A stretch of 63,879 nucleotides of DNA, the filler included, from Perkinsus chesapeaki ATCC PRA-425 (taxonomy: Eukaryota > Protista > Perkinsozoa), in assembly GCA_013115145.1 (NCBI GenBank). It is 11 parts of 11 records of this genome, joined end to end, with 100 filler letters (N's around TTAATTAATTAA, not from the genome) between each part and the next. Parts side by side here need not be neighbours in the genome. Positions count along the whole stretch, not along the records: positions 1 to 13,466 come from JAAPAO010000785.1; positions 13,567 to 28,969 come from JAAPAO010000727.1; positions 29,070 to 34,597 come from JAAPAO010001153.1; positions 34,698 to 39,041 come from JAAPAO010001275.1; positions 39,142 to 41,839 come from JAAPAO010001537.1; positions 41,940 to 45,192 come from JAAPAO010001441.1; positions 45,293 to 47,413 come from JAAPAO010001671.1; positions 47,514 to 57,378 come from JAAPAO010000924.1; 3 more parts are not named here. The stretch is one strand, 5' to 3'. The notes beneath the pieces were generated by a model. It was not told the origin of the DNA. It was given only the letters and a program-made list of their open reading frames with translations, and made no database searches. The translations under genes and the position numbers were made by a program. Shown one piece after another: positions 921 to 60,722 of this stretch (its first letter is position 1; every line of letters begins with the position of its first letter).

Positions 921-942
921 CGCTATAGTATAGCGGCTATAC
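921..942. repeat. 22-bp A/A'/A footprint (perfect), inferred target cgctatac
   Basis: c-gctata-g-tatagc-g-gctata-c. Confidence 0.9.
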
Positions 943-1097
943 TAAGCCACAGGCCGGTCACTCGAGTGGGTTCGGGAAAGGCTACTACAGAGCGGTAGTA
1001 GCACCATTAAAGCCGTTATATTTCTACTCTTTGTACAAGTGGGCTTCTTTCCGTCGGGTATCGACCTTCAGCAGTGATCCGTTCAGGCCCGGAGAAC

Positions 1098-2730
1098 ATG
1101 ATGTTGTTAATTTTCACGACCTTGCTGGCTACAACCCTCGCCGAGCGCAACCCCGCGGAATTGAAGCAAATGTTTACAGACTATAAAGCCCAGTACGATA
1201 TTATATCGTTGGTGTCGACCGAAGGATGAGTTTTGGATTACTTCGGTATTCTGCGCAGGTTCAAGCTGGACTTCGGTGAGCACGATGCTGAAAAAGAGGC
1301 TATTTTCCGAGCAAACGTGCAGTACATTGAGGAGACTAATGCTAAAAGTAGGTACTTACATATTATACAAGGTGACGGGGCAGCATGCTGCCACCTGAAC
1401 ATCTCTTGATTTAACCTGAGCTCTGAGTATCCTTCTTATGTTTGTGCTCTCGAGTCTGAAGTGTTGAATGGTCTCAGACCTATCCTATCGCCTTGGTATC
1501 AACAAGTTCACCCATCTAACCAATGATGAGTTTAGAAGCATGATGTCTCTCAGAGGCCTTGTAAGCTATCGTGCTTCAGGACTTCGATCCAGTACTCTAA
1601 ACTGTTCACTTGTGAGTTTTGACCGGTGTGTGCTCTCAGGTGGCAAATCTGATCGAGATGTGTTCAAGTTTACTGGAAGCCTGGATGATCTGCCCAAGTC
1701 AGTTGATTGGAGGAAGGAAGGGTATGTCACCCCAGTAAAGAACCAAGGACAATGTGGAAGCTGTTGGGCATTCTCAGCAACAGGTGTGTAAAGTAATTAA
1801 AAAATGCTGCGTTCTCATTTGTGGATGTCAGGTGCTCTCGAAGGCCTCTATAAGAAGATGACGGGGAAGCTCGTGTCCCTGAGTGAGCAGGAGCTTGTAG
1901 ATTGCAGCGATTCATTCGGGAATATGTATGACAAATACTTGACCAACTTGCGAGGTATGTTGAGTGTTCAGGGGCTGTGGAGGAGGGCTTATGGATTGCG
2001 CCTTCGATTACGTTGAAGCAAAAGGACTTGAGTCCGAGAACGACTATGAGTATGTTGCCCAAGGTCAGTCCTGCAAGGCTAACGGTGCCGAAGATGTTAT
2101 CAAGGTGAGTGTGCCTGACGCAATAAGGTTGTCTCTTGGATCTAAGTAACTCTTCATTATCTTTCATAGGCCGGAACTATTGCTCACCGTGACGTTGACA
2201 ATGACTCCGTGGACTCGCTCATGGCAGCCTTGGCAAATAACGGTCCTGTTAGCGTAGCTATCGAAGCTGACACGAACATCTTTCAACACTACAGTGGGGG
2301 AGTGATAGACAACCGTAAGCCCAAGTTAGACTGCCCAGCTTAGCGGCTAAGCCTTAGCCTACTAAATTCTGTAAATGGGGCACTTTGCTTTTCCTGTCGT
2401 CTGGAGACCGGACAAGCCTTTTATCTCATTTCAGCTGAGTGTGGTACAGACTTAGATCATGGTGTACTAGCTGTAGGATATAGTACCAGTGGTACCTCCA
2501 ACGACGATGTCCCGTAAGCCATGAGCATAAAAGTGATGTACTCGATAGCTTAAGGTATTTCATCGTCAAGAACTCCTGGGGTGCCGGTTGGGGAGAGGGT
2601 GGCTATGTTAGGATTGCATTGAACGGTCCGACAGAAGGTATCACGCCTCTAGCATGGATGGAAGGTTAGGGTTAATAATTCAGGTATCTGTGGCATTTTG
2701 AAGCTCCCAAGTTATCCTCGCAAGGCGTAG
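1098..2730 (+). CDS. Cathepsin L-like papain-family (C1A) cysteine protease, multi-exon
   Basis: Manual GT-AG splicing gives signal peptide [21 protein letters not shown]-like [26 protein letters not shown], mature [29 protein letters not shown] (catalytic Gln/Cys), DHGVLAVGY (His), IVKNSWG (Asn) and [16 protein letters not shown] at 2728-2730. Confidence 0.95.
2338..2359. repeat. 22-bp A/A'/A footprint (perfect), inferred target gcttagcc, in cathepsin intron
   Basis: g-cttagc-g-gctaag-c-cttagc-c. Confidence 0.9.
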
Positions 2731-4285
2731 CTCGAGTCGGTCGCCGTGGATCACCTCCTGTTGGTCTTCGAGCCGTCACCTTAGATCTCATTTCTCTGTC
2801 TATAACTCAGTTTTATGGTGAGTATGAGTTGTTCTTGTTGCTAGAAGGACATATTATGTTGAACTGTACCATGATCTCGTTATCGTGATCCTATAAAGCC
2901 CACGTGATAGTCGCAAGTAACGTTCGTTCCCATTATTCGGTTCATTCGAGCGAGCTGCCGAACGTTGACGTTGACCTTTCAAGGGCAAATTTTAGACTCG
3001 TTTCCTTGCTGGAGTCTCTTTGTAAATGCCCGTTTCAAACGCAGAGGGGGCTGGTGTTCATTAGGAAGTCAATGGCGTGAAGTTTCTAGTATGGCCTCAA
3101 CTCTGTTGTATACCCCTTAGAAGCTTGAAAGGCGGGAGTCGGCTGAGTTACTACACCATCTCCAGACCAAGTTAGTGAAGACCTAGAGCGATTACTGGAC
3201 TGTAGGCTACCGTGCTCCCAATAAGAAGATCTCGTTTTTGTGACCATTGTTTGGCAGTGACACATTCGTTACTCTGTGCCCCAAACTCAGAGAGTCTTGT
3301 TTTTACACGCCCAAGCTTCAGCGTCTTACTGGTTAGTGAGAACTGGAAAATCGGCATGGAAAAGTTGCCAAATCGGTTTAGACTACGCACATTAATTTTG
3401 GTCCTAAAATCACGATTCTTCTTAGGTAAGTACCTCTAGATAATAGAGTCTGATTACAACTCGTAATAGTATCTGAACCCTAGCATGTACAGTACTTACC
3501 CCCCGAAGTTTCATTGTGTAGTCTTGAGCAGTTAAGGAGAAAGTACAGTGAAGAGAGAAGATCGCTAGAATTGGTGCACCGTGGGTATCAAGCTAATTTG
3601 GTGGACTGTATCACGAACGCGACAAGATTTATAGACCTATCCGTTGAAAACTGCGTTCCCGCAATTAACTTATAAGTTTGCAGCTGCCATGATGAAGGTA
3701 TCCTCAATATGGCATAGCTCTGCCTACACAAAAGACGCATCAAGAAGGATTCAAGACAGACGATGACTGATGGTGACGAGATGCTATCGGCTGGTGACTG
3801 GTCATTCACAAGGATACTACAAGAGTAACATTGCACATCGGCATGAGCTGAAAGCAGGAGCATCATATGTGAGAAGGACATGATGCGTCACAGATATGCA
3901 ACTAGCGACCAAGAATACGAATTTTACTCGAATAATAACTTCGCCTCAGATTGAGGCTCTCCTCAAGATTCGCAGCCTGTACTACAGGTGCTGTAGACTG
4001 AGAGTAGAAACATACTGGCTGGTTACACGATAGAACCTCCACCACGGTTCTGAACACAGGCCATACAGCATTTAGCATTAGACCAGTCGCAGAAGACTTC
4101 CAAAAAAGAACCGGAAGATAGGGGATCCTATAAGCTTGAAGGCATGCTGGACCTCAGAGTTTCTTCATAATAATATACAACACGCGGAAGCTCCGCATAA
4201 CGTCGCGTATAACGACAAGCTTGTCCTTGGTGAGACTATACATGATGTCTGACGACCATTAGTCCTTAGAATTAGCATGTAGGAG

Positions 4286-59123: not shown

Positions 59124-59429
59124 GTTCCCGGGAATGTTCCCGGGAACAATATGGGNNNNNNNNNNNNNNNNNNNNNNNNNNNNNNNNNNNNNNNNNNNNT
59201 TAATTAATTAANNNNNNNNNNNNNNNNNNNNNNNNNNNNNNNNNNNNNNNNNNNNGGTGGGAGGATGTTGCACTGGGCGCACGCCCTTTTAATCGATGTC
59301 CAACATACTTGGATTGTCGTGTTAACACGAACCGAGATAGTAGCGCGATGTCGTTTGTGCAAATTGCATGAATCGATCGATATTACATGTCCTGGGGGAC
59401 TCAGATTAGCTTCCAATTCAGTTATATTG

Positions 59430-59760
59430 TCTACTCTTGGTCCTGGTCACCTGTGTCTCTAGAGTGGGCATCCATTGCAGGGGTCTCACACTTCTATCCG
59501 TTCTGCATGTCCGCATGCCCGGGTGTAGGTAATGTCCGCAAGGGTTCATGATATGGGGTGCGCTCCTCAACATCTTTGCTCGAATTAATCTCTACTAGCT
59601 CGAATTGTTAGTCGATAGTCTACTCTTGGTCACCTGTGTCTCTTGAACGGGCATCCATTGCAGGGGTCTCACACTTCTACCCGTTCTGCCTATCCGCATG
59701 CCCGGGTGTAGGTAGTGTCCGCAGGGGTTCATGATATGGGGTGCTTCCTCACACCTTCTT
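59430..59760 (+). repeat. Two-copy direct repeat, about 140 bp
   Basis: 59430-59576 and 59619-59760 share tctactcttggtc..gggcatccattgcaggggtctcacacttcta..ccgcatgcccgggtgtaggta..gggttcatgatatggggtgc, with scattered substitutions and a 5-bp indel. Confidence 0.92.
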
Positions 59761-60700
59761 CAGTTGAAGACTTCAACTTGAAGTCTGTTAGCCGGAGCTG
59801 CGGGCTACCCACACCCTTTCTCAAGGACACGACAGACGGGCCAGGGGCCCGGGGTCAACGATGGGACCCAACTCTGCGTGGGTCCGCGGGAGCCTCCCGT
59901 CGGGTGGGACTTGCTGAGGGTCTCGTGTTTTCCTCTCCGGAACTCGAGCAGTGCTCGGATGCGGCGGGGGGCGAAGGCCCCGTCAGTCAGAAGTCCGCCC
60001 CCCTGTAGGGGGGGCAAGATACATCGTAATTATACGTGTGGGGTCGGTACACTTCTCGTTCTTATGAGCACGGGATGTCCCACGGCAGAAGTGCGTCGCA
60101 AACCAATAAACAATGTTTATTGAACACCCAATTTCACGTGGGGAAGACACATCGTGGATATGATATCTATCGGATGGTTCGACATTGTTCACAATGAGCA
60201 GTGTTAGTGAATAATACCGGCGAGCTACCATCGCTCACGCATACGCATCTCTCCACCGATTTAACGATGTTTCAGATGTGCGCCCGACTCTCCCCAACCA
60301 AATCCAATGCGCCAATAGCCTCTATTTCCAGCGAGCCGCTGAACAAAACGGTGCGCACAATTTCAAATTTTGTATGGGCTTCTCCCTAGATGTGCTCGAT
60401 ATGATACGGAGGAAGCCACTGGCTTCAAGCCAGGACTTCCGGCACCGAATCGGTGTCACCAACGCAGCATAATATAAATAATAGTTTAACTATAATTATT
60501 AAATTATTCATTAATAATTTGAAAAATATTTCAACTGGTTCACGTAATCGTTGTGCCCCTTCAGCGGAAAGTCATGCCCCCACCTAGCCCCCCTTCAGCT
60601 GGTCGGTCTGGCCGAGGCCCTCGAGCGCTGTGCTCGGAGTGCTCGACGAGCACTCCGCCGGGTGTCAGGAACCACCCACACGTTGTAGGGGTGCCCCTCT

Positions 60701-60722
60701 CTGACGATTCGTCAGTGACGAA
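60701..60722. repeat. 22-bp A/A'/A footprint (perfect), inferred target ctgacgaa
   Basis: c-tgacga-t-tcgtca-g-tgacga-a. Confidence 0.9.

Follow-up and report, generated by a model that had tools for sequence, protein, structure and literature searches.

The Perkinsus chesapeaki DNA analysed here carries a palindromic 22-nt motif in many sequences and one geometry. We interpret these 22-mers as footprints of hAT cut-and-paste transposons excised from between two 8-bp target-site copies, a reading to which we assign a probability of roughly 80%.

Window and sample

The window is a stretch of 63,879 nt made of 11 short P. chesapeaki contigs joined by N spacers, and it is not a single locus. The organism is a parasite of shellfish. 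The motif was modelled as T[1-7] + revcomp(T) + T[2-8], where T is an 8-bp unit and the total is 22 nt. Background counts came from 100 order-4 Markov simulations of the window. Read-derived contigs were taken from X1, the one run that contains this DNA, which is possibly the window's own source and not an independent sample.

Abundance and geometry of the 22-mer

Each 22-mer consists of an 8-base site plus 14 bases. The pattern scan found 27 perfect copies, against a simulation mean of 0.00. Copies with one (15 vs. 0.02 expected), two (25 vs. 0.20) and three mismatches (41 vs. 2.53) were all above expectation and form a graded series. An earlier note, made by a model from the sequence alone, had listed 13 perfect and five one-mismatch copies. 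All of these were confirmed, but the inventory was incomplete (14 perfect and 10 one-mismatch sites had been overlooked), and its density of 1 per 3.5 kb rises to about 1 per 2.3 kb for perfect copies and about 1 per 1.5 kb with at most one mismatch. The sites are as follows, with no strand assigned.

921..942, perfect 22-mer, in the earlier note
2338..2359, perfect 22-mer, in the earlier note; apparently intronic in a papain-family gene, with a GTAAG donor some 24 nt upstream
6401..6422, perfect 22-mer, in the earlier note
6615..6636, perfect 22-mer, in the earlier note
6802..6823, perfect 22-mer, in the earlier note
17981..18002, perfect 22-mer, in the earlier note; X1 contig identical across site
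18518..18539, perfect 22-mer, in the earlier note; X1 contig identical across site
22269..22290, perfect 22-mer, in the earlier note; X1 contig identical across site
22617..22638, perfect 22-mer, new; X1 contig identical across site
23620..23641, perfect 22-mer, in the earlier note
24227..24248, perfect 22-mer, new
24998..25019, perfect 22-mer, new
25314..25335, perfect 22-mer, new; X1 contig identical across site
26864..26885, perfect 22-mer, in the earlier note; X1 contig identical across site
27060..27081, perfect 22-mer, new; X1 contig identical across site
27712..27733, perfect 22-mer, new; X1 contig identical across site
28734..28755, perfect 22-mer, new; X1 contig identical across site
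29587..29608, perfect 22-mer, new
30355..30376, perfect 22-mer, new
39876..39897, perfect 22-mer, new
45796..45817, perfect 22-mer, new
45834..45855, perfect 22-mer, in the earlier note
46199..46220, perfect 22-mer, in the earlier note
46642..46663, perfect 22-mer, new
59763..59784, perfect 22-mer, new; X1 contig identical across site
60412..60433, perfect 22-mer, new; X1 contig identical across site
60701..60722, perfect 22-mer, in the earlier note; X1 contig identical across site
One-mismatch 22-mers (15, within 358..53019), starts 358, 5381, 8855, 17720, 17830, 22238, 23497, 26984, 27300, 28653, 33651, 36748, 45906, 49105, 52998
Two-mismatch 22-mers (25, within 3975..61447), likely older, decayed scars, starts 3975, 12193, 16876, 17319, 17931, 18194, 19309, 21987, 24065, 24258, 24756, 27757, 28416, 30719, 33694, 36515, 39437, 40009, 40155, 49053, 52207, 59886, 60106, 61236, 61426

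The sequences differ and the geometry does not, as the earlier note had claimed: the 8-mers are all distinct, both in the 27 perfect sites and in the 67 sites with at most two mismatches. The peak that it predicted at a centre spacing of 7 was also found, with 38 loop-1 palindrome pairs (arms of at least 5) at that spacing and at most 5 at every other spacing in the range 1-24. Perfect copies are strongly enriched at a core length of k=6 only (27 copies, vs. one each at k=5 and k=4 and none at k=7 to 11). When sites were picked on 6-nt cores alone (n=36), the 7th pair matched in 29/36 on the left and 33/36 on the right, and the 8th pair in 8/36 and 7/36, which is chance level. The limits of the 8-bp unit are sharp because pairing falls to chance one base past it, in agreement with the unit and hairpin geometry first proposed. 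All 27 perfect copies are odd palindromes whose centres are the complement of the base adjoining the putative element. Neighbouring geometries other than shadows of the motif reach at most 2 copies each.

Long ORFs appear to be avoided, in line with the earlier note. Long stop-to-stop ORFs (at least 190 aa, 21.6% of the window) contain one of the 27 perfect sites (p=0.012), and the sole ORF of this length that holds one has no Pfam match. This depletion and the graded mismatches are consistent with neutral scars of differing ages.

Ancestral state and read support

The two-mismatch 22-mer at 17319..17340 lies within a high-copy repeat. A paralogous contig (depth 1487 vs. about 80) has a single 8-mer, CTCTTCCC, and is exactly 14 nt shorter. 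Realignment to this paralog, which was rebuilt from a difference table (12 of 38 indel rows listed) and not from the contig's own letters, gave an exact 14-nt gap in at least three of four gap settings. The palindrome centres are complementary to the first and the last base in the paralog. A single 8-mer ancestral state was thus seen at 1/1 site with a motif-spanning high-copy paralog among the matches listed, and the +14 bp over an ancestral 8-mer expected in the earlier note was observed at this one testable site. Self-BLAST of the window returned paralogous segments, none of them across a motif.

The note had also expected a filled state (8-mer/element/8-mer). Only weak, chance-like candidates came out of scans of the 63 kb for terminal inverted repeats bordered by duplications of 7-10 bp; these short contigs showed no convincing filled site, so we infer the scar-making element. 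A 239-nt skip at 24485-24725 was considered as an element replaced by a footprint and rejected, its flanks having no common 8-mer. A high-copy repeat starting with CAGGGG has no matching right end within the window. Searches of DNA collections returned no viral locus and a single weak metagenome locus, whose 10 kb contain 0 motifs at up to two mismatches.

The absence of a filled site among the 63 kb scanned would also suit a transposon-free origin, in which replication template switching or synthesis-dependent end joining inverts a local 8-mer. A four-point switching model can in principle yield inverted plus direct repeats (PMC5453318). We regard this origin as very improbable. It needs a return point before the departure point, an order unobserved in human-chimp data (PMC5453318), and switch lengths vary, whereas the 27 perfect copies have one length. 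A palindromic target bias that reaches into the flanks is, moreover, a transposase trait.

X1 contigs were identical to the window across at least 12 of 15 perfect sites in two compared stretches, and those carrying unchanged 22-mers have a depth of about 80-105x. Although these contigs are not an independent sample, their sequence agreement speaks against an artefact of assembly. An element under selection for a regulatory or structural role would fit the avoidance of long ORFs and the capacity of the 22-mers to form small hairpins. Taken together, artefact and selected element are, in our estimation, the least probable origin of all: the 8-mers differ at all 67 sites, the mismatches form a decay series, and the 22-mer at 17319 arose secondarily in one copy of a repeat, which largely refutes this explanation.

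Target-site bias

Target bias was computed on the inferred 8-mers, with both strands combined. G at position 1 (34/84, n=42 sites) was significant after correction for 48 tests, as were T at position 2 (59/134) and A at flank position -4 (55/134; n=67 sites for both). The 8-mers lean to GTnnnnAC, although T2 and A7 coincide at only 11 of 67 sites, and they show no preference for the central TA of Buster targets (6/67 sites). The hobo target motif is GTNCGNAC/NTNNNNAN, and 99.8% of its duplications are 8 bp (PMC3276498); Hermes targets nTnnnnAn (PMC10512250). The composition of the 8-mers thus suggests a modest, palindromic, hobo/Hermes-like bias that extends into the flanks.

Transposase-related sequences in the window

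Three ORF regions of the window are relevant to the source of the scars.

57668..59153, minus strand, hAT-like transposase (candidate), C-terminal half, cut off by contig end
36701-38977, SWIM-type, MULE-like ORF, identified by eye
40215-41645, SWIM-type, MULE-like ORF, weak SWIM match (E=0.013)

The ORFs at 57668-59153 are interrupted by an in-frame stop (58545-58547) and change frame around 58086-58120; they match P. marinus and P. chesapeaki proteins at 30-52% identity. Protein P0122 is an intact relative of the fragment and is similar to hAT-derived families; its language-model neighbours are FAM200/ZBED5, DUF4371 and C17orf113-type clusters. In a structural search with the P0122 model, at least 11 of 12 matches at E<=0.001 were Hermes transposase (best E 1.1e-8). 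The predicted fold is Hermes-like, but sequence identity to Hermes is about 10%. A D..D..CxxH..TRW..E layout was recognised by eye in relatives of the window transposase. Pfam gave no hAT match, a PDB sequence search was uninformative, and neither the fragment nor P0123 retrieved any relative in word-based protein searches. The fragment is a broken hAT-like transposase and represents only a candidate family for the origin of the scars; its presence in the same DNA supports the hAT reading of the earlier note.

The two SWIM-type ORFs raise the question of another hairpin-forming superfamily with an 8-bp duplication, such as MULEs or a less studied relative. The MULE Muta1 forms flank hairpins (PMC5499845) and may produce 8-bp duplications (PMC5225508). 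Merlin remnants (8-9 bp) and Dada elements (6-7 bp) have been reported from P. marinus. We consider such a source improbable. A MULE source would be expected to come with mixed duplications of 8-10 bp, no target bias and mostly precise excision. Muta1 duplications are 8 bp in 21/60 and 9 bp in 39/60 cases, target preference is slight, and about 90% of excisions are precise when the element is duplication-flanked (PMC5225508), although precise excision leaves no trace and so cannot be counted in this comparison. The window, in contrast, shows target bias and 0 copies of a 9-bp-unit version of the motif at up to two mismatches. The literature covered gives no evidence of hairpins for Merlin.

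Proposed mechanism

Under the hAT reading, an element would insert and duplicate the 8-mer T. On excision, the transposase would seal the flanks as hairpins, with the complement of the element-adjoining base at the tip; Hermes nicks one base into the flank. A host nuclease would then cut each hairpin open several bases to the 3' side of the tip, adding comp(N8), comp(N7) and so on to the left end and N1, N2 and so on to the right end. The overhangs would be complementary in one register because both derive from the same 8-mer, and pairing over 0 to 8 nt, fill-in and ligation would give the 22-mer. In a model table, any two openings that add at least 8 palindromic bases in total lead to the same 22-mer when joined in register. 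The uniformity of the product would reflect the position of hairpin opening in Perkinsus, on average at least 4 bases from the tip, and does not necessarily imply loss of Ku-dependent joining.

The earlier note had read the motif as a product of hAT hairpin excision. Its hAT origin, 8-bp unit and +14 bp are retained here; its annealing of a shared 6-nt segment is not. The hairpins share the whole reverse-complemented 8-mer and can overlap by 0 to 8 nt; since openings totalling at least 8 added bases give the same 22-mer, the product does not depend on a microhomology of 6 nt. A special case of the hAT reading, developed from the mainly microhomology-mediated joining that the note proposed, is that footprints are uniform through absent classical end joining and annealing at long microhomologies. 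Full 8-nt annealing would indeed yield the observed product, and short Ac-type footprint classes are at chance level in the window (2 to 4 copies each). Loop-1 palindromes with arms of at least 10 number 6 vs. 0.03 expected, one with an arm of 26 nt, and therefore hairpins can open far from the tip. The following features bear on this proposal.

61217..61269, no strand, perfect 26-1-26 palindrome, its upstream arm missing from a paralogous contig; probably from a hairpin opened a long way from the tip
23994..24016, no strand, near-variant of 23 nt, inverted copy with one extra base
46858..46878, no strand, near-variant of 21 nt, inverted copy with one base missing

We think this explanation of the uniformity rather unlikely. 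In Table S1 of PMC6635534, P. marinus is listed as having Ku70, Ku80 and ligase IV, so that mainly microhomology-mediated joining finds no support; the relevant passage of PMC8062965 does not mention Ku. Long homology is unnecessary for the product in the model table, and the two one-base variants differ mid-unit and fit short overlaps, although later slippage would also explain them. Our own tentative view, held at somewhat less than even odds, is that a Perkinsus nuclease would open transposon hairpins well off the tip and that the ends would be rejoined in a fixed register, a mode of resolution with no published precedent, with Ku and ligase IV apparently kept. Nearly every visible hAT excision would then leave the same +14 mark, amounting to about 100 events in 63 kb and about 2% of sequence added.

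Comparison with known systems

Ac/Ds elements in plants, S. cerevisiae and Candida albicans share a hairpin intermediate and palindromic insertions whose central base complements the one adjoining the element, with joins often at microhomologies (PMC5873905). Their footprints differ in being diverse: 28 types were found in 128 Candida clones, with a longest insertion of 3 nt, and in yeast the arms reach up to 20 nt (PMC5873905). In Perkinsus, a single product with a whole inverted 8-mer dominates. Hermes and hobo resemble the Perkinsus case, as read here, in their 8-bp duplication, flank hairpins and nTnnnnAn or GTnnnnAC targets (PMC6900584, PMC10512250, PMC3276498, PMC4763223). TcBuster in human cells gives flank-complementary insertions attributed to hairpins and end joining, but they are variable and only a few bases long, and the target is nnnTAnnn (PMC3499496). 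Known hAT footprints are therefore heterogeneous and mostly short, unlike the 22-mer (PMC5873905, PMC3499496). Uniformity is a variant feature governed by host repair, and is not a defining property of the family.

The flush geometry T + revcomp(T) + T (RAG/Transib-type) has 0 perfect copies in the window for units of 5 to 11. Flush cutting in V(D)J recombination and by Transib is expected to give even palindromes, and in this respect both differ from Perkinsus. V(D)J P nucleotides and Transib are otherwise alike in that flank hairpins are opened off-centre (PMC6900584).

Palindromic hAT footprints and their chemistry are already known. A single dominant product at such density was not found in the literature searched, nor was this fixed 22-mer or any Perkinsus footprint; that literature covers few subscription papers and does not extend to the principal studies of Ac/Ds footprints.

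Biological significance

A single genome does not usually reveal transposon excision, since most footprints are short and variable. The 22-mer scar is self-identifying and preserves the original 8-bp target, which makes it possible to count and map insertion-excision cycles, and to age them by mismatch, with no second genome for comparison. The scars offer near homoplasy-free markers for Perkinsus isolates. Annotation calls for caution, as palindromic scars could pass for regulatory sites. Hairpin opening in V(D)J recombination is the Artemis step, and the 22-mers are a direct readout of DNA-hairpin opening and rejoining in an alveolate. If hairpins are indeed opened off the tip and rejoined in a fixed register, the Perkinsus genome would be a countable, datable log of transposition, target choice and an unusual mode of hairpin opening.

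Geometry and Density of the 22-mer

The 22-mer, a double palindrome built on an 8-bp unit T (bases N1 to N8) and proposed to be a hAT excision footprint, or scar, is in its simplest notation T[1-7] + revcomp(T) + T[2-8]. The motif is real, and it is notable for its uniformity and density. A pattern scan of the window found 27 perfect, 15 one-mismatch, 25 two-mismatch, and 41 three-mismatch copies, compared to means of 0.00, 0.02, 0.20, and 2.53 in 100 order-4 Markov simulations. All 18 sites listed in the earlier note were correct, and the scan added further sites. Perfect copies were rare at other core lengths (one each for k = 4 and k = 5; the scan at k = 7 to 11 gave zero). 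The expected peak at a centre spacing of 7 was found, with 38 pairs of single-base-centred palindromes at this spacing; the count for every other spacing up to 24 was 5 or lower. In 36 sites picked solely for their three 6-nt cores, the seventh pair matched in 29/36 and 33/36 and the eighth in 8/36 and 7/36, which sets the unit at exactly 8 bp. The window has 103 single-base-centred palindromes whose arms are 7 or longer (5 expected), and all except 17 are part of the 22-mer motif. Template switching is another conceivable source of the 22-mer, but it would leave the length unfixed, and it needs a switch order reportedly absent from human-chimp data (PMC5453318).

The scars amount to about 100 sites in 63 kb, or roughly 2% added sequence, in DNA made of 11 short contigs with N spacers between them, which may not represent the genome. 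Long ORFs (stop-to-stop, at least 190 aa) make up 21.6% of the DNA and contain 2/42 sites (depletion p = 0.003), which fits purging of frameshifts, with exons of the intron-rich genes partly annotated.

Related repeats were also seen. A 7-bp-unit version of the geometry occurs at 22204, 28579, 45293, 49270, and 56614 (one perfect and four near-perfect copies, about 0.05 expected); perhaps these are rare 7-bp duplications or one-base losses. Plain tandem repeats in the whole window numbered seven of 8 bp (1.0 expected) and three of 9 bp (0.2 expected), and they may reflect ordinary slippage or untrimmed duplications. The flush geometry of RAG/Transib elements had zero copies in the window.

Read Support and Ancestral State

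Contigs from sequencing run X1, the one run found to contain this DNA, were assembled separately from the window, and X1 may be the window's own source. The stretches 13567-28969 and 59256-62624 hold 15 perfect sites; among the matches listed, X1 contigs were identical to the window at 12 of them, and the remaining three lie outside these matches. These difference-free contigs argue against an assembly artefact as the origin of the 22-mers.

Two features with paralogous X1 contigs are listed here:

17165-17678: high-copy repeat (depth 1100-1700), with a 10-1-10 palindrome (centre 17544) as well as scar 17319
24485-24725: 239 nt skipped in a paralogous X1 contig, with 8 other letters between

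Site 17319 is, among the matches listed, which cover 12 of 38 indel rows for 13567-28969, the only scar spanned by a paralog, an X1 contig at depth 1487 (compared to about 80 for single-copy DNA). The initial comparison consisted of scattered small gaps, and the paralog was rebuilt from the difference table and realigned. Under three of four gap settings (those with an alignment printed), the difference is one 14-nt gap, and the paralog has the single 8-mer CTCTTCCC, as the motif predicts. In a 26-1-26 palindrome, the upstream arm is missing from another paralogous contig, which connects 61176 to 61244; this arm, too, is therefore probably derived. The filled state (8-mer/element/8-mer) was not found in the 63 kb of short contigs, and the ends of the 24485-24725 skip have no target duplication. 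The 67 different sequences, the decay series, and the one derived insertion do not fit a regulatory role for the 22-mers.

Target Preference

The inferred target 8-mers are all distinct (67/67). Relative to local background, with both strands pooled, enrichment was found for G at position 1 (34/84, n = 42 sites), T at position 2 (59/134, n = 67 sites), and A at the fourth base beyond the unit (55/134, n = 67 sites), and each enrichment survives correction for 48 tests. Loosely, the targets follow the consensus ATTn GTTnnAAC nAAT. The bias is modest, with T2 and A7 together in 11/67 sites. Reported target motifs are nTnnnnAn for Hermes (PMC10512250) and GTNCGNAC or NTNNNNAN for hobo, whose site is described as a 14-bp palindrome (PMC3276498).

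Candidate Transposases

Two features of the window bear on a hAT source:

57479-59155: contig encoding a broken transposase, C-terminal half
59478-59760: two diverged copies, side by side, of a non-coding repeat with very high copy number (summed depth reaching 8290, compared to about 100)

A full-library search found relatives of the transposase fragment in P. marinus, P. chesapeaki, and P. olseni; all are named as hypothetical proteins, and they align along the fragment. Pfam gave no hAT domain. In the Atlas, the Perkinsus relative P0122 adjoins FAM200/ZBED5, DUF4371, and Dimer_Tnp_hAT clusters (score 0.94), assignments carried by under half of the top clusters' members. The predicted structure of P0122 (mean pLDDT 73) had 12 structural matches at E ≤ 0.001, at least 11 of them Hermes (best E 1.1e-8). 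Transposases of the hAT type are therefore present in the genus and in the window DNA; the fragment's family is only a candidate source of the scars. The high-depth part of each repeat copy at 59478-59760 begins CAGGGG, which resembles hAT-type termini, and no matching right end was found in the window.

MULEs, a less likely source of the scars, also form flank hairpins (PMC5499845), and the window contains MULE-like ORFs:

36701-38977, + strand: long ORF with a SWIM-like CxC..CxH motif, probably a MULE transposase
40215-41645, + strand: long ORF with a SWIM-like CxC..CxH motif, probably a MULE transposase

The Pfam SWIM domain matched weakly in the second ORF only (E = 0.013) and not in the first, whose 5' end holds the one-mismatch scar 36748. 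However, the MULE Muta1 is described as having mixed 8- and 9-bp duplications, little target bias, and mostly precise excision (PMC5225508), and the 9-bp version of the motif is absent from the window.

Other Genes and Repeats

Remaining features of the window are as follows:

49639-50982, - strand: intact subtilisin; nearest named relatives in P. chesapeaki (55-73% identity), followed by P. olseni and P. marinus
51246-51332, - strand: short N-terminal fragment of a subtilisin paralog, upstream of the intact gene
62508-62624: a further repeat of very high copy number (depth reaching about 6300), extending into the contig end
16310-16477 and 53451-53571: one dispersed repeat shared by the two intervals, with matches in both orientations
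31008-31445 and 33743-34180: two unannotated genes in tandem, with 85% identity to each other
62726-63877, - strand: open frame of 384 aa filling an entire contig
1468-2013, 19485-20263, 13846-15444, 8392-10180, 41942-45629, and 54381-54644: ordinary host genes by Pfam

The subtilisin relatives place the window DNA in Perkinsus, probably in P. chesapeaki or a near relative. The host-gene set comprises two papain-family proteases, a GH20 hydrolase, a TMTC mannosyltransferase, a polycystin-type channel, DUF229, an amino-acid transporter, and an SMC protein. The 384-aa frame had no match in a Pfam search and, by eye only, looks like a retroelement gag.

Proposed Footprint Formation and Repair

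The hAT nick lies one base into the flank. Transposases of this superfamily leave flanks that end in hairpins (PMC6900584, PMC4763223), and Ac/Ds footprints carry palindromes whose centre is the complement of the element-adjoining base (PMC5873905). Palindromic footprints of hAT elements are already established, and so are their microhomologies. Literature searches, whose reach did not extend to key Ac/Ds studies, did not find the fixed three-copy product or any Perkinsus footprint, and the 22-mer may already be among Ac/Ds footprint data as one type of many.

Beside a true 8-bp duplication, the left hairpin, once opened, would gain comp(N8), comp(N7), etc., and the right hairpin N1, N2, etc.; these additions would be complementary in one register only. 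In a bookkeeping table, opening pairs adding at least 8 bases in total all give the 22-mer, with overlaps of 0 to 8 nt. Annealing through a 6-nt microhomology, as the earlier note proposed, stands as one possible route, and it is one case among many because any such pair yields the same product. The note had also tied the uniformity to mainly microhomology-mediated joining. P. marinus is scored with Ku70, Ku80, and ligase IV (PMC6635534 Table S1), so there is no support for a loss of classical end joining; the Table S1 row is for P. marinus and settles neither P. chesapeaki nor the pathway used.

Single-base-centred palindromes with arms of at least 10 numbered 6 (0.03 expected). Single-base-centred palindromes at 661, 45752, and 60646 (arms 10-11) fall outside the 22-mer pattern and may be hairpins whose opening lay farther out, with a deletion at the join. 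The 22-mer is dominant among visible footprints, since precise excisions and deletions leave no trace. Shorter hairpin openings would give shorter footprints, and these classes were at chance level (e.g., 2, 3, and 4 compared to 0.9, 3.9, and 4.0 expected), with the exception of one 21-nt and one 23-nt variant. We infer that hairpins in the Perkinsus lineage were usually opened at least 4 bases from the tip, and sometimes much farther.
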